Assembly: GCA_035762825.1 (NCBI GenBank)
Contig: DASUCI010000054.1
Span: 1-54,654, forward strand
DNA: 54,654 nt
Source of the DNA: Gaiellaceae bacterium
GTDB taxonomy: Bacteria > Actinomycetota > Thermoleophilia > Gaiellales > Gaiellaceae
Direction: 5' to 3'
Part shown: positions 6,207 to 54,617 of the stretch, in pieces
Position numbering within the stretch: the first letter of the stretch is position 1
Layout: every line of letters begins with the position of its first letter
Notes under the pieces: model-generated
Told to the model about the DNA's origin: nothing
The model's input: only the letters and a program-made list of their open reading frames with translations
Database searches by the model: none
Made by a program: the position numbers and the translations under genes

Positions 6207-6235
6207 TAGAGCGCTCCGAGTCCGGGCCGGCGGCG

Positions 6236-8462: not shown

Positions 8463-8507
8463 GGGCTGCGGGATGTCCTCACCGGGCAAACCTGGAGGAT
8501 CCTCGCA

Positions 8508-8553
8508 GAAGCCCTCTGACAGACTCGAAACCGTCCACCGCGTCTTACGGTGC
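8508..8553 (-). pseudogene. degenerate 3' half of a tRNA-Thr (att-like direct repeat of the tRNA at 54545..54617)
   Basis: Plus strand 8508..8539 (GAAGCCCTCTGACAGACTCGAAACCGTCCACC) aligns with 54543..54573 (GAAGCCCTCTGACGGACTCGAACCGTCGACC). There are 29 identities, 2 substitutions and a 1-nt indel. Weaker similarity (CTTAC, GGTGC blocks) continues to 8553. Confidence 0.6.
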
Positions 8554-10351: not shown

Positions 10352-10644
10352 CCGCCGGGCGCGCCGCCGCGCGAGACCTCGCGCTTCATGAGATCGAGGA
10401 GCTCGCGGAAGACCTCCCGCAGGCCCGACTCGGACAGCGGTCCGCCGTTGGCCGCGACGAGCTCGTCGAGAATCTGACGCTCGCGGTCGGGGTCGACGAA
10501 CGCAAGCCCGTGCTCCTCCTTGTAGCGCTTGAGCTCGCCGACGAGCGCGAGCCGGGAGTTGATCGCCTCCAGGATCGTGCGGTCGAGGTCCGAGATCTCG
10601 TCGCGAAGCCGGTGGATGGGGGCGTGAGAGTGCGGGTCGTTCAT
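10348..10644 (-). CDS. chorismate mutase, small AroQ type
   Basis: 98 aa (RLRDEISDLDRTILEAINSRLALVGELKRYKEEHGL..DPDRERQIL) form a single CM_2 helical domain. ATG 10644 overlaps the pheA stop (ATGA). Its stop overlaps the trpG stop in a CTAG. Confidence 0.8.
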   Translation of the reverse strand: MNDPHSHAPIHRLRDEISDLDRTILEAINSRLALVGELKRYKEEHGLAFVDPDRERQILDELVAANGGPLSESGLREVFRELLDLMKREVSRGGAPGG

Positions 10645-14094: not shown

Positions 14095-14107
14095 AAGACC
14101 TCGGGTC

Positions 14108-14587
14108 TCAGCTCACCGCTTGCTTCACGAGCGCGGCGATCCTTGCCTCGTCGGCGGCGGACAGCTTCTTCAGCGCGAACGAGGTCGGCCACATGGTGCC
14201 GTCGTCGAGCTTCGCAGTGTCGTTGAAGCCGAATGTCGCGTACCTCGACTGAAATTTCGACGCCGGCGTGAAGTAGCAGACGACCTTGCCGTCCTGGGCA
14301 TACGCAGGCATCCCGTACCAGGTCTTCGGCCAGAGGTCGGGCGCGCTGGCCGTGACGATCGCGTGGATCCGCTTGGCCATGGAACGATCGGGTCCCGGCA
14401 TCTCGGCGATCTTCGCGAGCAGGTCATTCTCCCCCTCCGCCCTGTTCTTGCTCGCGCGCTCCTCCGCCTTCAGTTCCTTGGCGCGCTCCTTCATCGCAGC
14501 GCGTTCTTCATCCGTGAATCCCTTGGGCTTCTTGCGGCTCGCGGTGGTGCTCTCGGCGGGCTTCTGTGTGCCCTTCCTTGCGCTCAT
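14108..14587 (-). CDS. DUF1801 (YdhG-like) domain protein
   Basis: C-terminal 159 aa of ORF 14108..14803 (start MSARKG at 14587). A Lys/Glu-rich N-terminus is followed by a YdhG-like fold (WYGMPAYAQDGKVVCYF). Confidence 0.6.
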   Translation of the reverse strand: MSARKGTQKPAESTTASRKKPKGFTDEERAAMKERAKELKAEERASKNRAEGENDLLAKIAEMPGPDRSMAKRIHAIVTASAPDLWPKTWYGMPAYAQDGKVVCYFTPASKFQSRYATFGFNDTAKLDDGTMWPTSFALKKLSAADEARIAALVKQAVS

Positions 14588-35739: not shown

Positions 35740-35781
35740 CTCTGCCAGCCTCCTCTCCGTCGGGGCTTCCGCCCTTGCCGA

Positions 35782-37350: not shown

Positions 37351-37354
37351 GTCG

Positions 37355-38311
37355 TCAGCCCTCTCTGCCGACGTCGGGCGTTCCGTATGTGTGGAAGCTC
37401 TCGATCGTCTGCACGCCCCAGTACTGGCCCCGCGCGCGCTCTGCGGGGGTCCACGTGATGGGCTCGAAGTCCGGGTCGTACACGAAGTAGCCCCCGGTCG
37501 TGACCTCGATCCGGTTGCCTCCGGGCTCGAAGCCGTACAGGAAGAACCCTTGCGCGACTCCGTGTTTCGACGGTGCCGCTTCGATCGGGACGTCCGCGTC
37601 GACGAAGAGGTCCGCGGCCCGCAGGCACTCCTCGCGCGTGTCGACCCAGAAGGCGAGGTGGTGGAGCCGTCCCGTCGCGCCGTGGGCGTCCGCGACGTAG
37701 ATGAGCTCGTGCGCCGCGATCGTGAGGCTCATCCAGGCACCGGTCTCGGTTCCGTCGTCGAGCTCGATCCGCTCGTACAGGCGGTAACCGAGCACGTTCC
37801 TTGCGAACGTGCTGTTCGCGCGGACATCGGCCGCCAGCAGGTTCACGTGGTCGAGCCGCTTGACCGCCGCTCCCCTGCCGAGGTAGCGCTGTGGCTGATT
37901 CCTCCAGGACGGCCGCAGGTGCTTGGGCGGCTCGTAGCGCTCGGCCTCGTAATAGAGCTCGAAGACGTGGCCGTCGGGGTCCGTGAAGCGGTATGCCCGG
38001 CCGTGGCCTACGTCTCCTTCGATCCATCCGAGCCCGAGCCCCGTCGCCTCGACGGCCGCGACCCGGCGGTCGAGCGCCTCGGGGCTCCATGCCCGCAGCG
38101 CGACGTGCCCGAGCCCCGCCTGCGACGACTCCGTGAGCTTCAGGCTGTAGCGGAGGTAGTCGCCCCAGCCCCGGAGGAAGACGGACTGCCCGTCGCGGGC
38201 CTCTTCCTCCATGCCGAGCACGTCGGCGAAGAAGCGGAGGCTCGCCTCGGGCTTCGGGGTGAGGAGCTCCGCATGGCCGATCCGGGCGAGATCGTGGATC
38301 GGCTCGCTCAT
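37355..38311 (-). CDS. type I (VOC, two-domain, XylE-like) extradiol ring-cleavage dioxygenase
   Basis: 318 aa. Candidate 2-His-1-carboxylate ligands lie in RLDHVNL, RLHHLAFW and FEPGGNRIEV, spaced as in catechol 2,3-dioxygenases. ATG overlaps the upstream stop (ATGA). Confidence 0.8.
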   Translation of the reverse strand: MSEPIHDLARIGHAELLTPKPEASLRFFADVLGMEEEARDGQSVFLRGWGDYLRYSLKLTESSQAGLGHVALRAWSPEALDRRVAAVEATGLGLGWIEGDVGHGRAYRFTDPDGHVFELYYEAERYEPPKHLRPSWRNQPQRYLGRGAAVKRLDHVNLLAADVRANSTFARNVLGYRLYERIELDDGTETGAWMSLTIAAHELIYVADAHGATGRLHHLAFWVDTREECLRAADLFVDADVPIEAAPSKHGVAQGFFLYGFEPGGNRIEVTTGGYFVYDPDFEPITWTPAERARGQYWGVQTIESFHTYGTPDVGREG

Positions 38312-41406: not shown

Positions 41407-42069
41407 ATGGCCGTCACCTCGAGCTACGACGCCCTCCGCGCGGCCATCGTCCGCGGCGACATCGCGCCCGACGCGCGCCTCGTCGAAGCCGACCTCTCGA
41501 CGACGTTCGCGATGTCGCGCGGGGCCGTGCGCACCGCGCTCATCCGCCTCGAGCAGGACGGGCTCGTCGTCCGCGAGCCTCATCGGGGCGCACGCGTTCG
41601 GCGCGTCTCGGACGCCGAGGCGGTCGAGATCCTGCAAGCTCGCGCGGTTCTCGAAGGCCTCGCCGTCCGGCAGGCCGCCGACCGCATCGACCATGCGGGC
41701 GCCGCCCGTCTCCAGAGCTGCATCGCCCGTCAACGCGAGCTTCTCGAGAACGGCGACCTCCTCGGCGCGTCGGAGGTGAACGCCGAGCTGCACGCCACGC
41801 TGCTCGAGCTCTCCGGCCACGCGACCGCTATGCGTCTCATCGAGAGCCTGAACGCCCAGACGGTCCGCTACCAGTACCGCACGATCCTCATCCCGGGGCG
41901 TCCGGGCGCGTCCGTGGCTGAGCACGCTGCGATCGTCGAGGCGGTGACCGCCGGGAACGAGGACGAGGCGGAGCTGGCGATGCGGAGACATCTCCTCAAC
42001 GTCGCCGAGGCAGTGCGGGGTGGACGGCTGCCGGGCGGTATCGACAATGCGAGCCGCGGTGTCCTCTAG
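41407..42069 (+). CDS. GntR family transcriptional regulator (FadR/FCD subfamily)
   Basis: wHTH (EADLSTTFAMSRGAVRTALIRLEQDGLV) plus an FCD domain (NAELHATLLEL...EHAAIVEAV). Confidence 0.85.
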   Translation: MAVTSSYDALRAAIVRGDIAPDARLVEADLSTTFAMSRGAVRTALIRLEQDGLVVREPHRGARVRRVSDAEAVEILQARAVLEGLAVRQAADRIDHAGAARLQSCIARQRELLENGDLLGASEVNAELHATLLELSGHATAMRLIESLNAQTVRYQYRTILIPGRPGASVAEHAAIVEAVTAGNEDEAELAMRRHLLNVAEAVRGGRLPGGIDNASRGVL

Positions 42070-43456
42070 TCCTAGCCTCGAAGATCTGCTGGCCACGGCC
42101 GGGAACCCGGTCGAGCTGCTCCGCAACTCGCCGGCGGGCCCCAACGTGTACCCGGTCGTGCCTCCGGAGTTCACGAACTGGCGCGACGAGCAGAGGGCGT
42201 GGCAGACGACGTGCGTCCTCTTCAACCTCTCGTACCACATGAACGACCTGGCGGTCGAGGGCCCGGATGCCCTCGAGCTCCTCTCCCGGCTCGCCGTCAA
42301 CAGCTTCGACGGATTCGCGGGCGATCGTGCCAAGCACTACGTGCCGTGCAGCCCCGACGGATATGTGATCGGCGACGTCATTCTCTTCGCGCTGGGCGAG
42401 AACCGATTCAACCTCGTCGGCCGCGCCCCGGCCCTCAGCTGGATCATGTACCACGCGGAGACGGGCGGCTACGACGTCGCGGTCGAGCTCGACGTGAGGT
42501 CTGCGCTGCGCACCGACGGCCGCAGGAGGTCGTATCGCTTCCAGGTGCAAGGCCCCACCGCGATGCAGGTGATCGAGAAGGCGCTCGGCGGCACTCCGCC
42601 CGAGCTCGAGTTCTTCCATACGACGCCGGTGACCATCGCCGGCACGACCGCCGGCGCCTTGCGGCACGGCATGGTCGGACAACCGGGCTGGGAGCTCTTC
42701 GGGCCCTGGGACGACGGGGAGGCCGTGCACGAGGCGCTCGTCGCGGCCGGGGAGGAGTCCGGGCTCCGGCTCGCGGGTGCACGCGCGTACTCGTCCAACA
42801 CGCTCGAGTCCGGCTGGATCCCCTCGCCGCTTCCGGCCGTGTACTCCGGTGAGAGGATGAAGGCCTACCGCGAATGGCTGCCCGCGGCGGGGTACGAGGG
42901 GTCCGCGTCCATCGGCGGCAGCTTCGTCTCCGCGGACATCGAGGACTACTACTTCACTCCCTGGGACCTCGGATACGGGAGCTACGTCAAGTTCGACCAC
43001 GACTTCATCGGGCGCGAGGCGCTGGAGGCGATGGCGAAGGGAGAGCACCGCCGGAAGGTCACGCTGGCGCTCGACGACGAGGACGTCACCCGCACGATCG
43101 CAACCATGTTCGAGCAGGACGAGCGTGCGAAGTTCATCGACTGGCCGTCGGCGGTGTACTCGATGCATCAGTACGACCGGGTGACCGTGGAGGGGGAGAC
43201 CGTCGGCGTCTCGACCTGGATCGGCTACAGCGCGAACGAGGGCAAGCTGCTCACGCTCGCCGTGCTGGACGCCGAGCATGCCGAGCCCGGCACCGACGTG
43301 ACGTTCGTCTGGGGAGAGGAGGACGGCGGCACGGCCAAGCCCACAGTGGAGCCACACGTGCAGGTCGAGCTCGGCGCCGTGGTCAGCCCGGCGCCCTACG
43401 TGGAAGCCGTACGCAGGTCCTACGCACCCGGCGGCTGGCGCGCACAACATCCCTAG
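42047..43456 (+). CDS. tetrahydrofolate-dependent aryl O-demethylase, LigM/DesA-like, paralogue 2
   Basis: 469 aa from MRAAVSSSPSLEDLL. It shares the blocks of the 34345..35739 product (ELLRNSPAGPNVYPVVPPEFTNWRDEQRAWQ, YRFQVQGPTAMQVIEK, NTLESGWIPSPLPAVYSGERMKAYREWLPA, VKFDHDFIGREALEAM, RKVTLA). It overlaps the GntR end by 23 nt. Confidence 0.85.
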   Translation: MRAAVSSSPSLEDLLATAGNPVELLRNSPAGPNVYPVVPPEFTNWRDEQRAWQTTCVLFNLSYHMNDLAVEGPDALELLSRLAVNSFDGFAGDRAKHYVPCSPDGYVIGDVILFALGENRFNLVGRAPALSWIMYHAETGGYDVAVELDVRSALRTDGRRRSYRFQVQGPTAMQVIEKALGGTPPELEFFHTTPVTIAGTTAGALRHGMVGQPGWELFGPWDDGEAVHEALVAAGEESGLRLAGARAYSSNTLESGWIPSPLPAVYSGERMKAYREWLPAAGYEGSASIGGSFVSADIEDYYFTPWDLGYGSYVKFDHDFIGREALEAMAKGEHRRKVTLALDDEDVTRTIATMFEQDERAKFIDWPSAVYSMHQYDRVTVEGETVGVSTWIGYSANEGKLLTLAVLDAEHAEPGTDVTFVWGEEDGGTAKPTVEPHVQVELGAVVSPAPYVEAVRRSYAPGGWRAQHP

Positions 43457-43473: not shown

Positions 43474-44292
43474 CTACCAGAGCTCGAGGCGGCCGTCCTT
43501 GAGGACGGCGGTGCCCTCTGGGTTGACCGACTCGAAACCGAATCCAGCGTCGACGTTCCAGACGCGCGTCGTGACGGTCTCGCCGGGGAAGAGCGGTGCG
43601 GAGAAGCGCACGGCGATGCGCTTCACCGCTCGCGGATTCGCGACGCCCGCCGCCCGGAGAACGGCCCTCCCCGCGAACGCCATGGTGCAAAGCCCGTGCA
43701 CGATCCGTCCGGGGAGCCCGACCCCGTGGGCGAACTCGTCGTCGAGGTGGATCGCGAAGTCGTCTCCCGAAGCCGCCGCGTAGCGGGCGGTCTGATCCTC
43801 CGCGACGAGGTACGTGATCTCGGCGACCGGGTCGCCGTCCGCCTCGAGTCGGTGGTCGGGCGCTCGCTCGCCGACTCCGTCGCCTGCCTGCACGCCGCGG
43901 AAGAACTCCGTCACGTACTGCTCGTTCACGAGCTCGCCGCTCTCATCCCGCGTCTCCGTCTTGATGACGAGCGACGTCCCGTTCGGGCGCGGGAGCAGGG
44001 CGACCGGTGTCGCACGCGATACGACCTGCATGCCGGCCTCGAGCGGCCGGTGGAGCAGCATGTCCTGCTCGTAGTGCACCACGAAGCGGCGAATATCGCC
44101 GGACGCGACCGCCTCGGACGCAGGCGCGATCGCGCTCCGTACCGGAACGATCGCGAAGACCGGCCCTCCGGCGACGTCGTCCGTCGCCTCCGCGTACGCT
44201 TGCATCGCCGCGTCGGTGACCTCGTACGGGTAGTCGTCCCCGGCGCCTCCGATCGCAGCCACGTCGAAGGTCAGGGCACTCGTCTCGGGCAC
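43474..44292 (-). CDS. double hot-dog MaoC-like (R)-specific enoyl-CoA hydratase
   Basis: 272 aa from GVG 44292 region start VPETSALTF (GTG 44292). There is an N-terminal hot-dog domain and a C-terminal MaoC motif (YAAASGDDFAIHLDDEFAHGVGLPGRIVHG). The upstream 88 aa of the ORF lie in low-GC intergenic DNA. Confidence 0.75.
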   Translation of the reverse strand: MPETSALTFDVAAIGGAGDDYPYEVTDAAMQAYAEATDDVAGGPVFAIVPVRSAIAPASEAVASGDIRRFVVHYEQDMLLHRPLEAGMQVVSRATPVALLPRPNGTSLVIKTETRDESGELVNEQYVTEFFRGVQAGDGVGERAPDHRLEADGDPVAEITYLVAEDQTARYAAASGDDFAIHLDDEFAHGVGLPGRIVHGLCTMAFAGRAVLRAAGVANPRAVKRIAVRFSAPLFPGETVTTRVWNVDAGFGFESVNPEGTAVLKDGRLELW

Positions 44293-44296
44293 GCGT

Positions 44297-44311
44297 TTCA
44301 GGCTACCTGAT
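44297..44311. promoter_or_regulatory. operator palindrome TTCAGG-N3-CCTGAT (site 1)
   Basis: TTCAGGCTACCTGAT lies 5 nt upstream of the MaoC-like GTG, in the divergent region shared with the SBP gene. Confidence 0.6.
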
Positions 44312-44345
44312 AACCGGCAAAAGGTTTCAGCCTCTGGACAGTAGT

Positions 44346-44360
44346 TACAGGTTCCCTTAA
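44346..44360. promoter_or_regulatory. degenerate second operator copy (site 1b)
   Basis: TACAGGTTCCCTTAA matches 10 of the 12 half-site positions, in the same intergenic region. Confidence 0.35.
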
Positions 44361-44412
44361 ACTCGACCTCGTTGAGGCGACGCTGTCTCATCGATACCGA
44401 AGGGAGCCCTTC

Positions 44413-45594
44413 ATGAGCAGGAGGCAGATCGGTGTCGTCGTGGCTGCCGGTGCCGCGGTTCTCGCCCTCGTTCTCGTACCGGCGTCCGCGACGAGCCCCT
44501 CGCAGGCAGGCGCCATCTACTTCGGCATGGACGCGCCGCTGACCGGGCCCACGCAACTCGTCGGCCAGAGCGACCGGCAGGCCGTCGAAGCAGTGGTCGC
44601 GTACTGGAACTCACGCGGCGGCATCAGAGGTAGGCGAGTCGTCGTGGACGTTCTCGACAACTCATCCAACCCGTCGCAGGCCGTACAGAACGTCCAGAAG
44701 TTCATCAGCGACGCCAAGTACGTCGGCATCTTCGGCTCGGGTAACGCGGCCGCGGCCGTGGCGACCGGGGCGATCGCGAGCCAGGCGAGGATCCCGTTCA
44801 TCGCACTCTCGCCGCCGACGACGCTCGTCGAGCCGCCGCAGCCGTACGCCTACATCCTCACGGCGACGGCCCGCCTCTACGCATACAGCGAGGCGGCGTA
44901 CCTGAAGAGCATCGGCGTCAGGCGTGTCTGGCTGATGGGTGACAACGGCGGCTACGGCCGCGACGGGCCGAACCAGGTCTCGAAGCTCGCCCGGAAGTAC
45001 AACCTCGAGATCGTCGACACGACGATCTTCTCGCCCGCGTCGACGGACTTCTCCGCCGAGCTGACGAGGATCAAGAACTCCAATGCGCAGGCGCTCTGGC
45101 TCTGGACCGCGACACCTGCGGGCCCGACGATCGTCAAGCAGTTCAAGCAGCTCCAGCTGTCGCAGAGGCTCGTGTTGACGGGCGCCAACGTCTCGCCGCA
45201 GTTCCTCCAGGGCACGTGCGGCGACGTGAACGGCGCGCTCGTAAACTCGTTCCTGGCGACCGCGTGGACGTTCCTCCCCAAGACGAATCCCGTGCGCAAG
45301 GAGGCCGCTCTGCTCCGAAGCATCCTCAAGCGGCCGGTCTCCAACTTCGACGGCGACGCTGCGGGCGCGCTCTGGGCGTACAAGGCGGCGATCGAGAGAG
45401 GCGGTGCGACGCGAGCGGGCATCAACGCCGCGCTGGAGACGAAGCTGCGCGGGCTCGTGACGCCCGCAGGGAAGATCTATCTCTCACGGACCAACCATCA
45501 GGGCCTTCAGCTGGACTCGATGTGGGTCGGGAGGATCCAGAACTGCCAGGTCAGGCCGCTCTTCGGCCCGGCCTTCGCGAAGAAGAAGAAGTAG
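44413..45594 (+). CDS. ABC transporter substrate-binding protein, LivK/Peripla_BP_6 type (second system)
   Basis: 393 aa with a signal peptide (VVVAAGAAVLALVLVPASA), then YFGMDAPLTGP...GGIRG. Confidence 0.8.
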   Translation: MSRRQIGVVVAAGAAVLALVLVPASATSPSQAGAIYFGMDAPLTGPTQLVGQSDRQAVEAVVAYWNSRGGIRGRRVVVDVLDNSSNPSQAVQNVQKFISDAKYVGIFGSGNAAAAVATGAIASQARIPFIALSPPTTLVEPPQPYAYILTATARLYAYSEAAYLKSIGVRRVWLMGDNGGYGRDGPNQVSKLARKYNLEIVDTTIFSPASTDFSAELTRIKNSNAQALWLWTATPAGPTIVKQFKQLQLSQRLVLTGANVSPQFLQGTCGDVNGALVNSFLATAWTFLPKTNPVRKEAALLRSILKRPVSNFDGDAAGALWAYKAAIERGGATRAGINAALETKLRGLVTPAGKIYLSRTNHQGLQLDSMWVGRIQNCQVRPLFGPAFAKKKK

Positions 45595-45643
45595 CGATCA
45601 TGCGAGCGCCGCAGACGCTCGTCGTCCGGCGGCAGCGGCGCTC

Positions 45644-47059
45644 GTGAATCTCGCCCACGTCCTCGCGGACGGCGCCGACCGGCATCCCGAGCGGACGGCG
45701 TTGCTGTTCGAGGGCGAGCGGATCTCGTACCGCGAGCTCGACCGTCGGGCGGCCGTTGCGGCCACTGCGCTGCGGGCGCAGGGCGTCGACGCCGACGACC
45801 GCGTCGCGATCAAGCTGCCGAACACGCCCGACTACGTGGCCGCGTACTTCGGCGTTCTCCGCCTCGGAGCGATCGCGGTGCCACTCAACGTCCTTCTGGC
45901 ACAGCCCGAGATCGACGCGCGGCTCGAGGCGGCGACGCCGAGGACGTTCGTCGATCGTCCGCTCACGAGGGATGGCGAGCCGCGCGTCGAGATCGCCGTA
46001 CGGGACGAGGACGATCCGGCTGCGCTCCTCTTCACCTCCGGCACGACCGACCGGCCGAAGGGCGCGATCCTGACACATGCCGGAATCCGCGCGTCCGCGC
46101 GCTTCGGCGTGGAGGCCCTCGGCTTCACCGCCGACGACGTGCTGCTCGGCGTCGCACCCTTCCCGCATGTACTCGGTCAGCAGGTGTTCGTCTGCGCGTT
46201 TCTCGTCGGGGGAGCCGTATCCGTGATGCAGCGCTTCGAGCCCGAGGCCGCGCTCGAGACGATGGCGAGCACGCGGACGACGGTCATGTTCGGCGTACCG
46301 ACGATGTGCATCGCGCTCTGCGAGGCAGCGCCGAGCGCGGAGGCGCTGCCGCCGCTGCGGATCGCGCATATCGGCGGGTCCGCGGTCCCCGTCGACGTCG
46401 TGCGACGGTTCGAGGAGACGTTCGCGGCGGCGGTCCACGAGGGCTACGGTCTTACCGAGATGAGCGGCCTGGCGACGACCTTCGCGCTCGGGCGGCGCCG
46501 CAAATCGGGCTCGGTCGGACAGCCGTCGAGTGGCACGGAGGTTCGGATCGCGAGCACGGACGAGCGGGGGGCCGGTGAGGTCCAGTTCCGCGGCCCCTCG
46601 GTCATCCGCGGCTACTGGAACGACCCGGAGGCCACGGCCGCGAGGCTCGACAGCGACGGCTGGCTCTCGACCGGCGACCTCGGCTACCTCGACGAGGACG
46701 GCGACCTCTTCCTCGTCGACCGCAAGAAGGAGCTGATCATCCGAGGCGGCTACAACGTCTATCCGCGCGAGGTCGAGGAGGTGCTGTACCAGCATCCCGC
46801 CGTCCTCGAGGTCGCGGTCGTGGGAGTGCCCCACGAGTCGCTCGGTGAAGAGGTTGCCGCGATCGTCGTCCCGCGGCCCGGTGCCAAGGTCGATCCTGAA
46901 GAGCTGACGGCGTGGGCGAAGGAACGCGTGGCGGCCTACAAGTACCCTCGGCATGTCGTACTCGTCGCGGAGCTCCCGAAGAGCCCGACGGGGAAGATCC
47001 TCAAGCGGAGCATCGATCTCGGCCCACTCCGGGAGGGACTGACCCGCGCCGCACCGTGA
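45644..47059 (+). CDS. AMP-dependent acyl-CoA ligase (candidate hydroxycinnamate:CoA ligase)
   Basis: 471 aa with the adenylate-forming motifs LLFTSGTTDRPKGA, GYGLTE, TGDLGYLDEDG and RKKELIIRGGYNVYP. GTG start. Confidence 0.8.
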   Translation: MNLAHVLADGADRHPERTALLFEGERISYRELDRRAAVAATALRAQGVDADDRVAIKLPNTPDYVAAYFGVLRLGAIAVPLNVLLAQPEIDARLEAATPRTFVDRPLTRDGEPRVEIAVRDEDDPAALLFTSGTTDRPKGAILTHAGIRASARFGVEALGFTADDVLLGVAPFPHVLGQQVFVCAFLVGGAVSVMQRFEPEAALETMASTRTTVMFGVPTMCIALCEAAPSAEALPPLRIAHIGGSAVPVDVVRRFEETFAAAVHEGYGLTEMSGLATTFALGRRRKSGSVGQPSSGTEVRIASTDERGAGEVQFRGPSVIRGYWNDPEATAARLDSDGWLSTGDLGYLDEDGDLFLVDRKKELIIRGGYNVYPREVEEVLYQHPAVLEVAVVGVPHESLGEEVAAIVVPRPGAKVDPEELTAWAKERVAAYKYPRHVVLVAELPKSPTGKILKRSIDLGPLREGLTRAAP

Positions 47060-47084
47060 GCTTCGCGCGTGAATCTCAGGGTGA

Positions 47085-47113
47085 TTGACAGGTAGCCTGA
47101 AATCTTCGATACT
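47085..47113 (+). promoter_or_regulatory. promoter with embedded operator (site 2)
   Basis: TTGACA (47085..47090), a 17-nt spacer, then GATACT (47108..47113). The spacer carries GACAGGTAGCCTGAA (47087..47101), the reverse complement of TTCAGGCTACCTGTC. Confidence 0.55.
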
Positions 47114-47178
47114 CCCTCGGTCATCTGCCGGCGCGGGCAGAGCGGCCGAAATGCCGGCACGAGCAGGGGAGGTCGATC

Positions 47179-48573
47179 GTGAACCGTCTCCGCATCTGGC
47201 TTCGGAGCACGCTCCTCGTCGTTGCTCTCGTCGTGACGCTCGTCGCGGGCACGGGCTCGTCGGCGTCGGCAGCGAGCACCCACTTCACGGGGACGCTCCC
47301 GAACGGAGCCGCGTGGGTCGCGGACGTGCCGTCGAGCTGGAACGGCGTTCTCGTTCTCTACAGCCATGGCTTCGGGCCGCTGCTGGCGGCGAACGCGCCG
47401 AATGCGGCGACGCGCGACGCACTGCTCGCGCGCGGCTACGCGCTTGCCGGCTCGTCGTACGACCCCGCCGGCTCGTGGTGGGCGCTGAACACCGCCGTCA
47501 GCGACCAGTTCGCCACGATCGGCGCGGTGACGGCGGCAGGCCTCCCGCGCGCGCCCGAGCGCGTCCTCGCGTTCGGCACCTCGATGGGCGGCCTCGTGAG
47601 CGCGCTCGAAGCGGAGCAGGGAGCCGGAGTCATCGACGGTGCGCTCTCGACGTGCGGCCTCGTCGCCGGCGCGATCCATCTCAACAACTACCAGCTCGAC
47701 GCCGAGTACGCGATCGCGAGGCTCCTGATGCCTCCTCCTGGGGCCAAGCTCCTCGATTTCGCGAACCCGGGCGAGGGCGCCGCGTCGGGAGCCGCGCTGA
47801 CCGCAGCGGTGCAGACCGCGCAGACGACCCCGGAAGGCCGTGCACGCCTCTCACTGGTCTTCGCGCTCCTCAACGTCGTACCCGTCGCGCCCGGCGTTCC
47901 CGAGCCGGCGCCGAACGACGCCGCGGAGATCGAGGCGGCGCAATACGCGAGCGCGGTGCAGTCGTTCCCGCTGCTGAACTTCATCCAGTTCGGCCGCTAC
48001 TGGATCGAGCTCGCGGCCGGCGGCAACGGATCGTGGACGCGCGGCGAGGACTTCGCCGAGCTGCTGAGCCACTCGCCATACCACGACGTCGTCCGGAAGC
48101 TGTATCGCGCTGCCGGCCTCGACCTGAAGGCGGATCTGGGGACGCTCGACGCGGGCGCCTCGATCGGAGCCGATGCGGATGCCATCGCCTCGCTCGAGGA
48201 GACGTCGGTGCCGACCGGAGAGCTCGAGGTCCCGCAGCTCACGCTGCACACGACGGCAGATCCTCTCGTTCCCGTCCAGCACGAGAGCGTCTATGCGGAC
48301 GTCGTGCGGCGCGCCGGGAGCACCAGTCTCCTGCGGCAGGCATACGTCGACCGCTGGGGCCACTGCAGCTTCACGCCGGCCGAATTGGTGGCGGGCGTCG
48401 AGGCGCTCAGGCATCGGGTCGAGACCGGCCGCTGGGGCTCCGTCGCGCAGCCGGAGGCGCTCCAGGCGTCGGCGAACGCGCTCGGGCTCGGAGACGCGGC
48501 GTTCGTGCACTACACGCCACCGGCGCTGTCCGGCGACAACGGCTCGTTCGACCCGGCGAGCAACGGACGCTGA
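47179..48573 (+). CDS. secreted alpha/beta-hydrolase (candidate esterase)
   Basis: 464 aa with a signal peptide (LLVVALVVTLVAGTGSSASA), nucleophile elbow GTSMGG, and later TTADPLV and WGHCSF as candidate Asp/His positions. Confidence 0.6.
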   Translation: MNRLRIWLRSTLLVVALVVTLVAGTGSSASAASTHFTGTLPNGAAWVADVPSSWNGVLVLYSHGFGPLLAANAPNAATRDALLARGYALAGSSYDPAGSWWALNTAVSDQFATIGAVTAAGLPRAPERVLAFGTSMGGLVSALEAEQGAGVIDGALSTCGLVAGAIHLNNYQLDAEYAIARLLMPPPGAKLLDFANPGEGAASGAALTAAVQTAQTTPEGRARLSLVFALLNVVPVAPGVPEPAPNDAAEIEAAQYASAVQSFPLLNFIQFGRYWIELAAGGNGSWTRGEDFAELLSHSPYHDVVRKLYRAAGLDLKADLGTLDAGASIGADADAIASLEETSVPTGELEVPQLTLHTTADPLVPVQHESVYADVVRRAGSTSLLRQAYVDRWGHCSFTPAELVAGVEALRHRVETGRWGSVAQPEALQASANALGLGDAAFVHYTPPALSGDNGSFDPASNGR

Positions 48574-48669
48574 CGTGGAGCTGACGGCAGCAACGACCCA
48601 CCTGGCCGCGGGCGGCCGGCCGACCGGCTGCCCGCGTGAGCCTTCCGCGCGTTGTGCCACGATGCGCCG

Positions 48670-49137
48670 ATGAGCGAGGCCGTCCAGGTCGAGGAGGCGA
48701 CTCGCGCGGAGCCCGGCGTCTCGTACGCGGTCGCCCGCCTCCATCAGCGACTGTTCGCGGGCATCACCGAGCGCGTCGCCTCGTACGGACTCACGACACT
48801 GCAGTTCACGACGCTCAGCGTGCTCAGCCGGCACGGTGCCCCGCTGTCCACCTCGCAGCTCGCGCGGCGCGCGTTCATGACCCCGCAGTCGATGAGCGAG
48901 GTCATCCACGCGCTCGAGCGCAAGGGGCTGATCAAGCGCAACCCGCATCCGAATCACCGCAGGACGCTGCCCGCGACGCTCACGGCCAAGGGCCGTCGCG
49001 TGCTCGCCGAGTGTGAGGCGGCGGTCACGGAGTTCGAGGACTCCATGCTCGCCGGCTTCTCGGAGAAGGACCGCGCCACGTTCCTCGACATGGTCAAGGC
49101 GGCGGTTCGCAACCTCGGCGGCGGCTTTCCGGACTAG
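48670..49137 (+). CDS. MarR family transcriptional regulator
   Basis: wHTH (LTTLQFTTLSVLSRHGAPLSTSQLARRAFMTPQSMSEVIHALERKGLIKRNPHPNHRRT). ATG 48670, alternative TTG 48652. Confidence 0.85.
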   Translation: MSEAVQVEEATRAEPGVSYAVARLHQRLFAGITERVASYGLTTLQFTTLSVLSRHGAPLSTSQLARRAFMTPQSMSEVIHALERKGLIKRNPHPNHRRTLPATLTAKGRRVLAECEAAVTEFEDSMLAGFSEKDRATFLDMVKAAVRNLGGGFPD

Positions 49138-49151
49138 AAGCTGCCACGTGT

Positions 49152-49166
49152 TTCAGGTAACCTGAA
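49152..49166. promoter_or_regulatory. operator palindrome TTCAGG-N3-CCTGAA (site 3, best palindrome)
   Basis: TTCAGGTAACCTGAA lies in the 32-nt gap between the MarR stop and the ATPase GTG (49170). Confidence 0.6.
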
Positions 49167-49169
49167 TCC

Positions 49170-49973
49170 GTGGCGGCGGCTCTCCCGCTCGCACCCGAGA
49201 CGGAGCCGCAGCTCGCCTGCGAGCTCTCAGGCGTCACGAAGGCGTTCGGCGCGGTCAGGGCGGTCGACGACGTCTCGCTGGACGTCGCCGCCGGGTCGCT
49301 GACCTGCCTCATCGGTCCGAACGGCGCGGGAAAGTCGACCCTGCTCGGCTGCATCTCGGGATTCCACCTCGTCGACACCGGCGTCGTTCGGATCGAGCGG
49401 CAGGACGTCACGCGCTGGCCTCCGCATCGCCGCGCCCGGCACGGCCTGGCGACGGTGTTCCAGACGACGCGCCCGCTTGCCGAGCTCGACGTCCTCGACA
49501 ACGCTGCGGTCGGAGCCCATGTCCGCTCGCGCACCGGCTTTTTCGAGAGCATGCTGCGGCCCCCGTGGCAGTGGCGCGAGCAGCAGCGGGTGCGGGAGGA
49601 GGCTCACGAGGCTCTCGCGATCGTCGGGTTGGACGGGCGTGCGGCGCACCCGGCCGCCGTGCTTCCGCTGGGACAGCTCCGGCTCCTCGCGCTTGCACGG
49701 GCGCTCGCGCAGCGTCCATCCGTGCTGCTGCTCGACGAGCCGGCCGCAGGGTTGCGCGCCGGCGAGAAGGCGCACCTCATCGACGCCCTGCGGACGCTCT
49801 CGGGGCGTGGGCTCACGATGGTGCTGGTCGAGCACGACATGCAGTTCGTGGGCGCGCTCGCAGAACGCGTCGTCGTGCTGGACCGGGGGCGCGTGATCGC
49901 AGACGGAACGGCGACCGAGGTGCGCAATGACCCGCAGGTCATCGCGGCGTACCTCGGCTCGACGACGCTATGA
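49170..49973 (+). CDS. ABC transporter ATP-binding protein (LivG-like)
   Basis: GPNGAGKST and LLLDEPAAGL, with the LivG-specific insertion. Confidence 0.85.
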   Translation: MAAALPLAPETEPQLACELSGVTKAFGAVRAVDDVSLDVAAGSLTCLIGPNGAGKSTLLGCISGFHLVDTGVVRIERQDVTRWPPHRRARHGLATVFQTTRPLAELDVLDNAAVGAHVRSRTGFFESMLRPPWQWREQQRVREEAHEALAIVGLDGRAAHPAAVLPLGQLRLLALARALAQRPSVLLLDEPAAGLRAGEKAHLIDALRTLSGRGLTMVLVEHDMQFVGALAERVVVLDRGRVIADGTATEVRNDPQVIAAYLGSTTL

Positions 49974-50737
49974 CCGCGCTCGTCGAGGTGGACGACCTCG
50001 TCGTCCGCTACGGGCCGGCGGTGGCGCTCCACGGCGTCTCGCTGACGCTCGGAGCGGGTGAGCGCGTCGCCCTCATCGGCGCCAACGGCGCGGGCAAGTC
50101 CTCGCTCTTGAACGCGGTCTGCGGCGTGGTGCGGCCGGCGGGAGGAAGGGTGCGGGTCGCGGGTGACGACGTCACCGGAAAGACGCCGAACCACGTGGTA
50201 CGCCGTGGCCTGACGCAGGTCCCGGAGGGCCGGCAGGTGTTCCCCAGCCTTCCGGTCGAGGCAAATCTCCTTCTCGGCGCGTTCGGCCGCTCCTTCCGGA
50301 CGGAGATCGTGACCTCGACTCTCCGCTACCTCCGCCGCCGTGCGGAGGCGCGCGAGCGTCTCGAGCGCGTCTACACCCTGCTGCCGAAGCTGCACGAGCT
50401 GCGCCAACGGCCTGCCGGACGAACCTCGGGCGGCGAGCAGCAGATGGTCGCGATTGGTCGCGCACTGATGGCCGAGCCGCGGGCGCTCGCGATCGACGAG
50501 CTCTCGCTCGGACTCGGGCCGATGGTCGTGGAGCAGCTCGTCGAATTCCTGCACCGGCTCAACGACGAGGAGCACGTCGCGATCCTCCTCGTCGAGCAGA
50601 ACGCGCTGCTCGCTTTCGACTTCTGCGAGCGCGCCTACGTCCTGGAGACCGGTCGGGTCGCGCTCGAGGGAGAGAGCAGTCAGATTCGTGAGCGCCCGGA
50701 GGTGCACAGCGCGTACCTCGGAGGTGGCCCCGGATGA
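49970..50737 (+). CDS. ABC transporter ATP-binding protein (LivF-like)
   Basis: GANGAGKSS, TSGGEQQMV, LAIDELS. The start overlaps the upstream stop. Confidence 0.85.
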   Translation: MTALVEVDDLVVRYGPAVALHGVSLTLGAGERVALIGANGAGKSSLLNAVCGVVRPAGGRVRVAGDDVTGKTPNHVVRRGLTQVPEGRQVFPSLPVEANLLLGAFGRSFRTEIVTSTLRYLRRRAEARERLERVYTLLPKLHELRQRPAGRTSGGEQQMVAIGRALMAEPRALAIDELSLGLGPMVVEQLVEFLHRLNDEEHVAILLVEQNALLAFDFCERAYVLETGRVALEGESSQIRERPEVHSAYLGGGPG

Positions 50738-52707
50738 CCGAGTTCCTGCAGCTTGTCGTCGTCGGGCTCTCGACCGGGTCGGCGTTCGCGCTCGTCGGCA
50801 TGAGCCTCGTGCTCGTCTATCGGACGACGGGGATCGTGAACTTCGCGCAAGGCGTCTTCGCGGTGATCGGCGGACTGTTCACGTTCCAGCTCTCCGACGA
50901 CATGCCGCTCGCGCTCGCGACGCTCGTGTCCGTCCTGCTCGCCGCGTTCCTCGCCTCGCTTCTCGCCGTCGTCGCCGTCGGCTTCCGCGGGCGGACGACC
51001 GGTCTCGCGAGCACGATCATCACGCTCGGCGCCGCCTTTCTGGCGCAGGCGCTGCTCCTGCTCAAGTTCGGGGACATCCCGCGCAGCTATCCCGGCATCT
51101 CCGACCGGGCGTGGAGCATCGGTGGCGTACTCGTCCAGCCGCAGTACGTGCTCATCGCAGGGGTCGCGCTCGCCTGCGCCGTCGCACTGACGCTCTTCCT
51201 CCGCTGGACCATCGTCGGACAGGCGCTCGTCGCGTGCGCGGACTCGCGCCGCGCCGCCGAGCTCGTCGGCCTCAACATCCGCTCGCTCGCTGTCGTCGCG
51301 TTTGCCGGTGCAGGCGCTCTCTGCGCGCTCGGCGGCGCGCTGCTCGCGCCGAGCAACCCGATGACGTACAGCTCGGACGTCGCGATCACGGTGAACGGCT
51401 TCGCCGCGGCCGTCTTCGGCGGCCTCGGCTCGATCCGCCTCGCGCTGCTCGGGGGCTACGCGCTCGGGATCCTCGAGCAGCTCGTCGTCGGCTACGTCGA
51501 CCCGCAGTACAGCCTGATCATCGCCCTGATCGTCATGCTCGTCCTCATCGGCTGGCGCTCGCGCGCGGAGATCGCGAGTGCGTCGCACGAGGCGCGGGCG
51601 GTCGTCCAGCGCGCACGCGTGCCGTGGCCGGCGCCGGTCCGGATCGGGCTGATCCTCGCCGGCGCCGTCTTCGCCTGTTGGCTTCCGTACCAGCTCTCGA
51701 CTTTCGACGTGGCGCTGTACGACCGCATGGGTCTGTATGCGCTCGTGACGATCGGCCTGACGCTCCTCATGGGGTATGCCGGGCAGATCTCGCTCGGGCA
51801 GGGGGCGTTCTTCCTCGTCGGCGCGTACACGTCGGCGATCCTCACCGTCGGCATCGACCCCGACACGCGCTTCGTCGATCCCGGTGCCGGCGTCTCGCCG
51901 GTGCTCGCCGTGCTCGCCGCGCCCGTGGTCGCGGCAGTGCTCGCGGCCGTGATCGGCGTCCCGCTTCTCCGCCTCCACGGCCATTACCTCGCGTTCGCGA
52001 CGCTCGCGCTCCACCTCATCGCGTTCTCGGTTCTCTCGGCCTGGGACCGGTTCACGGGCGGCCAGTACGGGATCTCGGTCACGAAGCCGCTCACAGTCTT
52101 CGGTCACGATCTTCGCGGGCCGCTGCATGCAGCAGTCGTCTGGGCCGTCGTTGCGGTCGCACTGCTCCTCGCGACCAACCTCGTCCACTCGCGGGTCGGG
52201 CGCGCGTTGCAGGCGATCGCCACGGACGAGCAGTCGGCCGCCGCGTCGGGCATCCCGGTCGCGAGCTACAAGCTCCGGCTGTTCGTCTTGGCGGCCGCTC
52301 TCGCCGGGCTCGGCGGAGGGCTGTTCACGTTCTCGTTCCTCATCGTCTCCCCCGAGGCGTTCCCCATCGTGCTGAGCATCGAGTTCGTCGTCATGGTCGC
52401 CGTCGGCGGACTGGGAAACATCTACGGCGCGGTCGCGGGGGCGGTCGCCATCCTCTACCTCGAGCAGAAGCTCCGCGACCTGGGAACGCGGCCGGACCTG
52501 TTCGGCTGGGACTTGCCCGACGCGGCTCCGACCGTATTCTCGTTCGGCGTCTTCGGGCTGATCCTGATGGCGATCATGCTCTTCTTCCCGCGCGGGCTGC
52601 TTCCGGCGCTCGGCGACGTGACCGCGCGCCTCTGGGAGAAGGTCCGCAGTGCCCGGCGTCCGGGCGCTACTCCGCCAGCCCCAGCAGCCGGGCAGCGTTC
52701 TGCTTGA
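50734..52707 (+). CDS. fused LivH-LivM type ABC permease
   Basis: 657 aa. The N-terminal ~290 aa are LivH-like (GIVNFAQG). The C-terminal ~340 aa are LivM-like (LLMGYAGQISLGQGAFFLVGAY). Confidence 0.8.
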   Translation: MTEFLQLVVVGLSTGSAFALVGMSLVLVYRTTGIVNFAQGVFAVIGGLFTFQLSDDMPLALATLVSVLLAAFLASLLAVVAVGFRGRTTGLASTIITLGAAFLAQALLLLKFGDIPRSYPGISDRAWSIGGVLVQPQYVLIAGVALACAVALTLFLRWTIVGQALVACADSRRAAELVGLNIRSLAVVAFAGAGALCALGGALLAPSNPMTYSSDVAITVNGFAAAVFGGLGSIRLALLGGYALGILEQLVVGYVDPQYSLIIALIVMLVLIGWRSRAEIASASHEARAVVQRARVPWPAPVRIGLILAGAVFACWLPYQLSTFDVALYDRMGLYALVTIGLTLLMGYAGQISLGQGAFFLVGAYTSAILTVGIDPDTRFVDPGAGVSPVLAVLAAPVVAAVLAAVIGVPLLRLHGHYLAFATLALHLIAFSVLSAWDRFTGGQYGISVTKPLTVFGHDLRGPLHAAVVWAVVAVALLLATNLVHSRVGRALQAIATDEQSAAASGIPVASYKLRLFVLAAALAGLGGGLFTFSFLIVSPEAFPIVLSIEFVVMVAVGGLGNIYGAVAGAVAILYLEQKLRDLGTRPDLFGWDLPDAAPTVFSFGVFGLILMAIMLFFPRGLLPALGDVTARLWEKVRSARRPGATPPAPAAGQRSA

Positions 52708-53536
52708 GGACGAGCGGCCGGACGTCGTCCCTGAAGTCCGCGCGCGCGAAGTCCTCGAGCCACCGGTCGGGCGTGATCAACGGGAAGTCCGACCCGAAGA
52801 GCACGCGGTCGCGCAGCAGCGTGTTCGCGTACTGGACCAGCTGCGGCGGGAAGTACTTCGGCGACCAGCCAGAGAGATCGATGTAGACCTGCTCCTTGTG
52901 CAGCGCGACCGAGATAGCCTCGTCCTGCCAGGGGAACGAGGGATGAGCGAGCACGATCTTCAGCTCGGGGAAGTCGACCGCGACGTCGTCCACGTACATC
53001 GGGTTCGAGAACTTGAGCCGGATGCCGCCTCCGCCCGGAAGGCCGGAGCCGATTCCCGAATGCCCCGTGTGGAAGAGCGCGGGCACGCCCGCCTCGGCGA
53101 CCACCTCGTACAGCGCGTAGAAGGCGCGATCGTTGGGATAGAACGCCTGCACGTTCGGGTGGAACTTGAACCCCTTGACGTCGTAGTCGCGGACGAGCCG
53201 CTTCGCCTCCTCCACCGCACGCGCGCCTTTGTTCGGGTCGATCGACGCGAACGGGATGAGCACGTCCGGATTCGCCGCCGCGACCTCGGCGATCTCTTCG
53301 TTCGGCACTGCCGGGCGCCCGGTCACCGTCTCCGCGTCGACGGTGAAGATGACCGCCGCAAGCTTGCGCTCGCGGTAGTAGGCCGCCACGTCCTCCACGG
53401 TCGGCAGCGCGTGCTCGCCGAAGTACGTGGCCGCCGCCGCGCGCCACTCCGGCCGCAGCCCGTCCTCGCCCGCGCGCCCGACCTCCGCGTGGACGTGGAC
53501 GTCGATCGCCTCGACGGCTGCGACGTCGATGGTCAC
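52667..53536 (-). CDS. amidohydrolase family protein (Amidohydro_2-like; CouO-like candidate)
   Basis: 289 aa from VTIDVAAVEAIDVHVHAE (HxH), then FHTGHSG, LAHPSFPW and GSDFP. GTG 53536 overlaps the SDR stop (GTGA). Confidence 0.7.
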   Translation of the reverse strand: MTIDVAAVEAIDVHVHAEVGRAGEDGLRPEWRAAAATYFGEHALPTVEDVAAYYRERKLAAVIFTVDAETVTGRPAVPNEEIAEVAAANPDVLIPFASIDPNKGARAVEEAKRLVRDYDVKGFKFHPNVQAFYPNDRAFYALYEVVAEAGVPALFHTGHSGIGSGLPGGGGIRLKFSNPMYVDDVAVDFPELKIVLAHPSFPWQDEAISVALHKEQVYIDLSGWSPKYFPPQLVQYANTLLRDRVLFGSDFPLITPDRWLEDFARADFRDDVRPLVLKQNAARLLGLAE

Positions 53537-54360
53537 GAGGTCATGCCGGTCATCTGGCCGCCGTTCACCGTGAGCACCTGGCCTTGCACGAAGTTCGACC
53601 ATGGGGAGCACAGGAAGAAGATCGCGCCCGCAGCCTCCTCGGGAGTGCCGGCTCGGCCGAGCGGGATGATCGTCGGCGCGAGCTCGCGCATCTGCTGGGG
53701 GATGCCGAGCCTGATCGCCTGACCGTCCCGTTCGATCGTGTCGCCGTTCTCGGAGGAAGCCGTCAGCCGGGTATCGATGAACCCGAAGGCGGCGGCGTTC
53801 ACGTTCACGTTGAACGGTCCCCATTCCCGCGCGAGCGTCTTCGTCAAGCCGACGAGCCCGGCCTTCGCAGCCGCGTAGTTGATCTGGCCGACGTTCCCCT
53901 GCGTGCCGGAGATCGAGGTGATGTTGACGACCTTCCGGAAGACTTCGCGGCCCTCCGCCTTGTCCTTCTTGCCTGCATCTCGGAGGTACGGAGCGGCACC
54001 GCGGAGAACCGCGAACGGCACCACGGTGTGGATCTCGAGCATCGCGCGGAACTGCTCGTCGCTCATCTTGTGCGCCATGCCGTCCCAGGTGTAGCCGGCG
54101 TTGTTGACCACGATGTCGATCTGCCCGAACGCGTCGACCGCGGCCTGGACGAGTGCCGCGGGAGCGCCCTCCGCCGTCAGGTCGCCTGCGAAGACGGCCG
54201 TCTCGCCATCGATCTCGTTCGCGGCCTGCTCGGCGACGTCGCCGTCGACGTCGTTGATCAGCACGCGCGCTCCGTGCTCGGAGAGAAGCGCGGCGGTCGC
54301 GCGACCGATGCCGCGCGCCGACCCAGTGACGATCGCCGCCTTGCCGTCGAGCACGCCCAT
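53533..54360 (-). CDS. SDR family oxidoreductase (candidate 3-hydroxyacyl-CoA dehydrogenase)
   Basis: 275 aa from MGVLDGKAAIVTGSARGIGRA (TGxxxGxG), with NNAG and YAAAK. ATG 54360 is preceded by GGAAAGGAAGG. Confidence 0.8.
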   Translation of the reverse strand: MGVLDGKAAIVTGSARGIGRATAALLSEHGARVLINDVDGDVAEQAANEIDGETAVFAGDLTAEGAPAALVQAAVDAFGQIDIVVNNAGYTWDGMAHKMSDEQFRAMLEIHTVVPFAVLRGAAPYLRDAGKKDKAEGREVFRKVVNITSISGTQGNVGQINYAAAKAGLVGLTKTLAREWGPFNVNVNAAAFGFIDTRLTASSENGDTIERDGQAIRLGIPQQMRELAPTIIPLGRAGTPEEAAGAIFFLCSPWSNFVQGQVLTVNGGQMTGMTS

Positions 54361-54384
54361 GGGGCGGGCCTTCCTTTCCGCGAT

Positions 54385-54399
54385 TTCAGGTTCCCTGAT
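54385..54399. promoter_or_regulatory. operator palindrome TTCAGG-N3-CCTGAT (site 4)
   Basis: TTCAGGTTCCCTGAT lies 25 nt upstream of the SDR ATG. On the coding strand it directly follows a TAGTAT -10-like hexamer. Confidence 0.55.
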
Positions 54400-54544
54400 A
54401 CTAGTCGGGGTCACGCGTAGGCGCGTAGGGCGTGCGTGCCGTCTCGACGTTAGGGGATCGCGCCGACAACCGCTGCGGACTTCGGGCTACGTTGTAGTCG
54501 ATCTCACGCTCCGACCAAATGCCGATTTGCAGGTAATTCAGCGA

Positions 54545-54617
54545 AGCCCTCTGACGGACTCGAACCGTCGACCCCCTCCTTACCATGGAGGTGCTCTACC
54601 GACTGAGCTAAGAGGGC
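54545..54617 (-). tRNA. tRNA-Thr (anticodon GGU)
   Basis: The reverse complement folds as a 73-nt cloverleaf: GCCCTCT TA GCTC AGTCGGTA GAGC A CCTCC ATGGTAA GGAGG GGGTC GACGG TTCGAGT CCGTC AGAGGGC T. No CCA is encoded. Confidence 0.9.

Follow-up and report, generated by a model that had tools for sequence, protein, structure and literature searches.

Introduction

Among the regulators of the MarR family that have been described in connection with aromatic acids, those closest to the system considered here are CouR of Rhodococcus jostii RHA1, HcaR of Acinetobacter baylyi ADP1, PcaV of Streptomyces coelicolor, and CouR of Rhodopseudomonas palustris. In RHA1, where CouR is a repressor with p-hydroxycinnamoyl-CoA as its ligand, the CouR box is an inverted repeat, cATTGA-N5-TCAATg, one copy of which lies over the -35 element of each of the four cou promoters, and p-hydroxycinnamates are deacetylated by means of a ligase, β-oxidative steps and CouO, an enzyme of the amidohydrolase superfamily (PMC4737184); HcaR is the repressor of the hca genes for hydroxycinnamate catabolism, and its ligand is debated between coenzyme A (CoA) thioesters and the free acids (PMC5487221); PcaV, an actinobacterial MarR repressor of protocatechuate genes with protocatechuate as its ligand, binds TCAG-N4-CTGA at one perfect and one imperfect site of a single divergent intergenic region, and its sites have also been found through cross-species conservation (PMC3616709). 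The subject of the present analysis is a palindrome, TTCAGG-N3-CCTGAA, which occurs, exactly or with few mismatches, at five sites in one block of genes of a Gaiellaceae bacterium, an actinobacterium of soil that is uncultured (GenBank assembly GCA_035762825.1, contig DASUCI010000054.1; the whole stretch analysed, 54,654 bp in length, is called the window), together with the MarR-family regulator encoded in the same block. The best explanation, to which a probability of roughly 0.78 may be assigned, is that this palindrome, whose full form is gTTTCAGG-N3-CCTGAAAc (about 17–19 bp), is the operator of the embedded regulator, which would bind it and act as a repressor of the adjoining promoters (Table 1).

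The comparison with RHA1 is instructive on both sides. The two systems have in common a MarR-type regulator located inside a hydroxycinnamate cluster, with boxes overlapping several promoters, and the enzyme families of the RHA1 pathway are matched in the window (AMP-binding, MaoC, adh_short and Amidohydro_2; the match is at family level, NCBIfam giving no specific names); to this extent the block may be called cou-like, as was done in an earlier note on this DNA. The term fits neither the regulator nor the box: the structures of RHA1 CouR (5cyv and 3fm5, 22.8–22.9 bits, E ~9e-4) are the weakest of the 56 MarR structures in the PDB that match the window protein, which is not a CouR orthologue, and the CouR box is absent, no copy of cATTGA-N5-TCAATg with up to one mismatch being present in the whole window. 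Moreover, the CouR box always lies over the -35 element, whereas the boxes of the window stand in four registers, and the regulator gene of the window is placed amid an ABC (ATP-binding cassette) transporter operon, the conserved core of the locus being the transporter and not the enzymes.

The best solved relative of the window regulator is HcaR (3k0l, 5bmz; E 3.3e-17, 66 bits, residues 6–133), followed in the ranking by Rv2887 and then by R. palustris CouR; in both proteins the recognition helix begins with PQS and the wing fits P-x-P-x-H-x-RR, but they belong to different phyla and are at most possible orthologues. The resemblance to PcaV concerns the DNA, its TCAG-N4-CTGA differing by one base of spacing from the TCAG-N5-CTGA of the window (that is, TCAGG-N3-CCTGA) and its perfect and imperfect pair recalling sites 1 and 1b; however, PcaV has two sites and the window five, and the two proteins resemble each other weakly (4fht, E 4.9e-4). 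In R. palustris, CouR and CouPSTU likewise combine a MarR repressor with Peripla_BP_6-type ABC uptake of lignin-derived aromatic acids; the similarity is low, both between the solute-binding protein (SBP) of the window and the aromatic-acid binder CouP (4jb0, E 2.4e-11) and between the two regulators (6c28, E 3.5e-8), and several "Leu/Ile/Val-binding" proteins outscore CouP as relatives of the window SBP. The system of the window would work like CouR and PcaV, outside the CouR orthologue group and with a regulator that is HcaR-like; the reading of the palindrome as an operator is well supported in silico. No literature on hydroxycinnamate regulation in Gaiella was found.

Occurrence of the Palindrome in the Window

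Each of the five palindromes listed in the earlier note was recovered at its place, and so was the 14-mer which it had reported for sites 1 and 2 in opposite orientations (TTTCAGGCTACCTG, at 44296–44309 on the plus strand and at 47089–47102 on the minus strand). In a pattern search TTCAGGNNNCCTGAW is found exactly at 44297, 49152 and 54385, and has no match in shuffled sequences; when up to two mismatches are allowed, TTCAGGNNNCCTGAA returns exactly the five sites and no others in the 54,654 bp, for which 0.86 matches are expected by chance and for which none of 100 shuffles gave five. All five sites lie, as had been claimed, inside gaps between the genes of the block; these gaps amount to 600 nt of non-coding DNA with a GC content of 63% (69% in the window overall), and their shuffling gives a mean of 0.018 palindromes and a probability of 0.0002 for two or more, against five observed.

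An independent measure was provided by a weight matrix of 21 columns, trained solely on sites from 42 related Gaiellaceae-type genomes, the window being left out: the five sites of the window score 22.5–31.3 bits, no other position of the window exceeds 8.4, and the maxima of Markov-simulated windows have their 95th percentile at 12.0 bits. The arms of TTCAGG-N3-CCTGAA have their centres 9 bp apart, which is about one helical turn, and show a symmetric information content. An artefact of chance or composition was considered as the origin of the motif and is ruled out by the shuffles, the gap statistics and the independent matrix. A generic inverted-repeat search of the block brought up only GC-rich coding palindromes and the leader of the hydrolase gene.

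The statement that the palindrome marks every promoter of the module is compatible with every promoter predicted here; as a statement on every non-coding gap it would be too strong, two gaps of the block (SBP–ligase, 45595–45643, and hydrolase–MarR, 48574–48669) being without a site. Among the upstream regions inspected, that of the CoA ligase gene carries no box.

Table 1: Palindromic sites, predicted promoter elements and genes of the block (positions in the window; bits, score with the 21-column matrix; last column, orthologues of the gene that carry a box)
Feature	Position	Strand	Sequence or basis, and remarks	Orthologues with box
MaoC-like (R)-hydratase gene (maoC)	43474..44292	-	Pfam MaoC_dehydratas; candidate target	10/11
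Site 1	44297..44311		TTCAGGCTACCTGAT (minus strand ATCAGGTAGCCTGAA); directly 5' of maoC; 26.4 bits	
-10-like TAGCCT	44300..44305	-	centre of site 1; read from sequence	
Predicted SBP promoter	44335..44363	+	-35 TGGACA 44335–44340, 17-nt spacer, -10 TAAACT 44358–44363; promoter scan	
Site 1b	44346..44360		TACAGGTTCCCTTAA; fills SBP promoter spacer, overlaps -10; 29.4 bits	
SBP gene of ABC transporter	44413..45594	+	Pfam Peripla_BP_6 family; candidate target, conserved core	
Acyl/aryl-CoA ligase gene	45644..47059	+	Pfam AMP-binding; within SBP operon	
Predicted hydrolase promoter	47085..47113	+	-35 TTGACA 47085–47090, 17-nt spacer, -10 GATACT 47108–47113; promoter scan, 10/12 matches	
Site 2	47087..47101		GACAGGTAGCCTGAA; overlaps -35 and spacer of hydrolase promoter; 22.5 bits	
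Secreted alpha/beta-hydrolase gene	47179..48573	+	unnamed family, weak Pfam matches; candidate target	4/11 (>=12 bits)
MarR-family regulator gene	48670..49137	+	155 aa; Pfam MarR_2, MarR; proposed binder	
Site 3	49152..49166		TTCAGGTAACCTGAA; perfect palindrome; 31.3 bits	
-10-like TAACCT	49158..49163	+	centre of site 3; GTG at 49170 follows after 6 nt	
Two ABC ATPase genes and one fused permease gene	49170..52707	+	Pfam ABC_tran x2, BPD_transp_2 x2; candidate targets, conserved core	36/43 (ATPase)
Amidohydro_2 gene, after SDR	~52667..53530	-	Pfam; start inferred from orthologue alignments; candidate target	
Short-chain dehydrogenase/reductase (SDR) gene	53533..54360	-	Pfam adh_short; candidate target	7/8
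Site 4	54385..54399		TTCAGGTTCCCTGAT; upstream of minus-strand SDR-amidohydrolase operon; 28.0 bits	
-10-like TAGTAT of SDR promoter	54398..54403	-	overlaps outer two bases of site 4	

Conservation among Related Loci

The 42 related loci (L001–L042) were found by a search with the MarR protein and belong to soil species represented by metagenome-assembled genomes and labelled Gaiellaceae, Gaiella or Actinomycetes, with MarR identities of 73–94%. Synteny defines in all of them a constant core, SBP–(ligase and/or hydrolase, optional)–MarR–ATPase–ATPase–permease, and MaoC and SDR-amidohydrolase genes are found in only about 10. Over the 741 kb of these loci the matrix gives 99 matches of at least 12 bits, 97 of which lie no more than 130 nt upstream of SBP, MaoC, hydrolase, ATPase or SDR orthologues; the remaining two are a MarR-downstream site at a contig end and a borderline match of 12.4 bits. 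The enzyme genes and their boxes are gained and lost together.

The arrangement is varied in two loci, L036 having two tandem copies of the SBP–MarR–ABC module (63–5326 and 5412–10676) with boxes in each, and L032 a second MarR paralogue (14028–14441, 62% identity) on the opposite strand, 3' of the permease gene. In a wider protein search for MarR relatives the matches listed were all at least 85% identical and unnamed, and none lay beyond the clade.

Relation of the Sites to Predicted Promoter Elements

A scan of 11 kb for promoters of sigma-70 type returned just two, those of the SBP and hydrolase genes, and each of them coincides with a site; the overlap rests on the consensus prediction of the -35 and -10 elements. 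In 38 distinct sequences of the SBP upstream region the sole conserved island is a stretch of 35 nt (44332–44366), which spans the promoter from the -35 element to just beyond the -10 and in which all 17 positions of the spacer are kept; since a promoter alone would leave its spacer unconstrained, this conservation supports an operator. At site 1b the sequence T[G/A]CAGG[C/T]TCCCTTAA recurs in essentially all related loci, and this site alone is shared by all 42 relatives with the region. Its description as degenerate in the earlier note is therefore to be abandoned, the more so as the mismatch (G13 to T) coincides with T1 in the -10 hexamer TAAACT; with the island conserved, and with an obligatory mismatch that the -10 hexamer explains, site 1b is the primary site, the ancestral and universal one of the proposed operators.

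Two potential hairpins accompany the SBP gene. Just past its predicted transcription start, the 5' leader contains a small hairpin, GAGGC-N6-GTCTC (44374–44389), the equivalent of which in L029 is GAGTC..GACTC, an apparent compensatory change; the L033–L042 clade has CAGGCtgCCTG at this position instead, and RNAalifold on the SBP leader did not recover the GAGGC-N6-GTCTC hairpin. In the SBP–ligase gap (about 45600–45640) a conserved inverted repeat, GCGCCGCAG...(C)TGCGGCGC, may be an intercistronic hairpin with a stabilising or attenuating role, and a related repeat lies 3' of the SBP gene in loci without the ligase gene.

At sites 1 and 3 it is the centre of the palindrome that contains a -10-like hexamer. 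Site 1 is kept ahead of all but one of the 11 MaoC orthologues, and its TAGCCT is followed after 7 nt by the GTG start of maoC (44292); the same hexamer precedes an ATG or GTG by 7–8 nt in 8 of the 11 orthologues, where a Shine-Dalgarno sequence is missing, and the distance suggests a leaderless maoC mRNA. Site 3, which begins 14 nt past the MarR stop codon, ends 3 nt ahead of the first ATPase GTG and recurs 3' of MarR in 36 of 43 loci, shows a comparable geometry: the distance from hexamer to start is 6–8 nt in 38 of 38 sequences, the hexamer fits TANNNT in 28 and the start codon is GTG in 37, and the ATPase gene has no Shine-Dalgarno sequence. An internal promoter for a leaderless ATPase–permease mRNA is accordingly possible at site 3. 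As for site 4, TAGTATCAGGGAACCTGAA is kept upstream of all but one of the eight SDR orthologues, and the TAGTAT at its edge is invariant in every SDR upstream region bearing the site, being followed by a leader in which the ribosome-binding site is GAAAGG; from the overlap of TAGTAT with the edge of the palindrome it follows that an operator would cover the region of the transcription start. Transcription is predicted to begin at 44292 (minus strand) and 49170 (plus strand) in the two putative leaderless cases, and near 44370 (plus), 47120 (plus) and 54390 (minus) at the other three promoters.

The hydrolase promoter, whose -35 element and spacer are overlapped by site 2, is conserved in orthologues. 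About 10 nt 5' of site 2 there is an extra half-site, TCAGG, at 47077–47081 (tATCAGGGTGtTTGACAGG), which other species keep in their hydrolase promoters. Downstream, some 60 nt of the 5' leader (47112–47178) are conserved, and the RNAalifold consensus of nine species (-21.8 kcal/mol) pairs a 5' CUCCC with the GGGAG ribosome-binding site around a GCCGGC stem; compensatory changes were not seen in the nine species, and the leader may sequester the Shine-Dalgarno sequence.

The Regulator and Its Own Transcription

The window regulator matches the Pfam families MarR_2 (4.8e-16) and MarR (6.8e-13), both past the cut-offs. Its recognition helix, TPQSMSEVIHALE, does not vary among 43 orthologues, and the invariance extends to the preceding helix (STSQLARRAFMTPQSMSEVIHALE), in parallel with that of the CAGG/CCTG core of the palindrome; the wing reads NPHPNHRR or DPHPSNRR according to the clade, and the outer and central bases of the operator shift as well, TTCAGGTAG versus G(T/G)CAGGTGG, a correspondence which is correlative. 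The claim of the earlier note that the palindrome is an operator for this protein is in part supported, inasmuch as a conserved cis-element tied to the cluster overlaps promoter elements and lies beside the sole conserved regulator. Its "four-promoter regulon" has to be modified: the set does comprise several promoters, but their count is not four, the units being five, namely maoC, SBP, hydrolase, ATPase and SDR.

Autoregulation through the hydrolase promoter, also proposed in that note, would apply only to genomes like this one; in most species the MarR gene comes directly behind the SBP gene, and for this reason autoregulation, if any, would generally proceed via the SBP promoter. Since no terminator was found in a search of the block, transcripts from the SBP and hydrolase promoters probably include marR. 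MarR autoregulation is plausible; it cannot be considered established, because marR may own a promoter at a conserved upstream element. This element, GTGA(C/A)ACGATG (GTGCCACGATG in the window, 48654–48664), ends 5–6 nt 5' of the MarR start in nearly all of L001–L042, is kept whichever gene precedes MarR and lacks a Shine-Dalgarno sequence; it might represent an extended -10 (TGnCACGAT), and hence a separate promoter of a leaderless marR mRNA, and its ATG, which is in frame in the L033–L042 clade, may be the MarR start there.

Proposed Mechanism and Alternative Explanations

In the proposed mechanism each site would be occupied by a single MarR dimer, whose two winged helices would contact one CAGG/CCTG arm each and which would block RNA polymerase at the core promoter elements that the site overlaps; the elements occluded would be the -35 and the spacer at site 2, the spacer and the -10 at site 1b, the whole -10 of probably leaderless transcripts at sites 1 and 3, and the -10 together with the transcription start at site 4. 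An aromatic ligand, which may be either a hydroxycinnamoyl-CoA produced by the ligase of the cluster or the imported aromatic acid itself, would free the promoters, and its action would turn on uptake (SBP and ABC transporter) and, where encoded, the CoA-dependent enzymes of side-chain shortening and the secreted hydrolase. Precedents for a CoA-thioester ligand are CouR, FerC, and R. palustris CouR (PMC5487221), and such a ligand would also suit the presence of the ligase gene in the first operon of the window.

A number of observations weigh against this explanation or restrict it. The loci were sampled through MarR homology, with flanks of 10 kb on either side, and the linkage between MarR and the motif is thus partly true by construction. 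In six loci (L022, L024–L028) site 3 is eroded (e.g., CCCGGGTGACCTGAA) or overrun by a C-terminally extended MarR frame; site 1b is intact in L022, L024, L025, L026 and L028, which indicates that the internal operator is dispensable. The most distant clade has TGGCCT at the centre of site 3, without the A that is crucial to a -10 element, and this substitution, together with the six loci just mentioned, implies that the internal leaderless promoter is not general. Site 2 is the least conserved of all, reaching 12 bits in 4 of 11 orthologous promoters: in other species its right arm drifts and its left arm is kept, the latter because it is part of TTGACAGG. Finally, most species have no CoA ligase beside the module, which weakens the case for a CoA thioester and renders the imported acid an equally plausible ligand.

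The features of sites 1 and 3 bear on two further explanations, of which one adds to the operator and the other replaces it. Since at these sites the centre and right arm of the palindrome spell TA(A/G)CCT, the last T of which is the invariant T of CCTG, the same sequence could make up the entire core promoter for a leaderless mRNA and at the same time be the site of the repressor, a tentative proposal which is probably not correct. Were it true, site 3 would constitute an internal promoter that can be repressed on its own and lies just past the stop codon of the repressor itself, and in this genome read-through transcripts may in addition form an RNA hairpin that covers the GTG. It could be supposed instead that the palindromes act altogether as RNA hairpins on translation or stability, for instance by hiding the ATPase GTG at site 3 within a polycistronic mRNA. 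In the window the region 49130–49190 folds with -30.4 kcal/mol (z = -4.3), an extended helix, GCUGCCACG/CGUGGCGGC, covering the start codon, and in L042 too the site 3 region gives a good fold (z = -2.7); in most relatives, however, z ranges from +0.2 to -1.6 and the extended helix is not conserved, RNAalifold at site 3 retains just a 4-bp core and no compensatory change, sites 1b and 2 fall in promoter spacers, 5' of the predicted transcription starts, and the palindrome is found in both orientations and precedes genes of either strand. A stem of 6 bp with a loop of 3 nt is, besides, a weak hairpin. A general RNA function is for these reasons quite unlikely; as a minor, genome-specific effect an RNA hairpin is a possibility. 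A conserved RNA hairpin at site 3 was rejected, being strong in the window and not conserved in relatives, and so was a known RNA family, Rfam at E<=1 giving only tRNA and one spurious small nucleolar RNA match.

Two other explanations retain the palindrome as a DNA element. According to one of them it would be the operator of a different factor, either the GntR/FCD regulator (41407–42069) or a global regulator encoded elsewhere, and MarR would have another target. The GntR/FCD gene is close (2.2 kb upstream) and adjoins a gene for an O-demethylase of DesA type, and the GGTAACC of site 3 is vaguely like the GT-N-AC core, but this gene is present in 4 of the 42 loci and the motif in nearly all of them; the window scan finds no box ahead of the GntR or DesA genes, the central triplet differs among the sites (CTA, TTC, TAG, TAA) and leaves GT..AC unconserved, and MarR is the sole regulator gene of the conserved core. 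This assignment is unlikely. The other explanation dispenses with the repressor and takes the palindrome as a mere consequence of the -10 and -35 hexamers; it would account for the fact that each site overlaps a -35 or -10-like hexamer and for site 2, where the left arm is kept along with TTGACA and the right arm drifts. It does not account for the recurrence of the same two arms in four different registers relative to the hexamers, which favours a separate, polymerase-occluding DNA-binding protein over a promoter element, nor for the spacer positions that are invariant in 38 distinct sequences, nor for sites 1, 3 and 4, in which both arms are kept and one hexamer explains at most half of the motif; promoter elements without a repressor are therefore very improbable.

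If the palindrome is indeed the operator of the embedded MarR repressor, the abundant and almost uncultured soil lineage Gaiellaceae would offer a testable regulon made of one repressor, one box of 15–19 bp and five promoters, which would join ABC uptake to the CoA-dependent side-chain shortening of lignin-derived aromatic acids, beside genes for tetrahydrofolate-dependent O-demethylation. The motif could be used for tracing the regulon in metagenomes, and the pair of box and repressor might find use as a compact sensor part responding to aromatic acids or their CoA thioesters. The understanding of MarR regulation is left unchanged, since the system would be an ordinary bacterial on/off switch.

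The Secreted Hydrolase and the Neighbouring Genes

The secreted hydrolase belongs to a family with 1960 relatives at E<=1e-5, in which a GTSMGG motif is invariant and the homologues are unnamed; a sequence search against the PDB gave no match. Its AlphaFold2 model has a predicted local distance difference test score (pLDDT) of 62.5, and Foldseek returns generic esterases with template-modelling (TM) scores of 0.2–0.3, among them a few feruloyl or cinnamoyl esterases, matches too weak to assign a function. Presumably co-regulated with an aromatic-acid transporter, the enzyme could possibly be an esterase that releases aromatic acids.

Beside the block, at 34345–37728 and 41407–43456, lie genes of methoxylated-aromatic catabolism, for which the matrix scan of the window found no palindrome upstream. 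They encode the DesA-type syringate/vanillate O-demethylase (NCBIfam, 802.6 bits at a cut-off of 800), a second GCV_T-type enzyme, a protein similar to methylenetetrahydrofolate reductase and the GntR/FCD regulator. On the other side, about 145 nt past site 4, a tRNA-Thr (GGT) gene occupies positions 54545–54617 of the minus strand.

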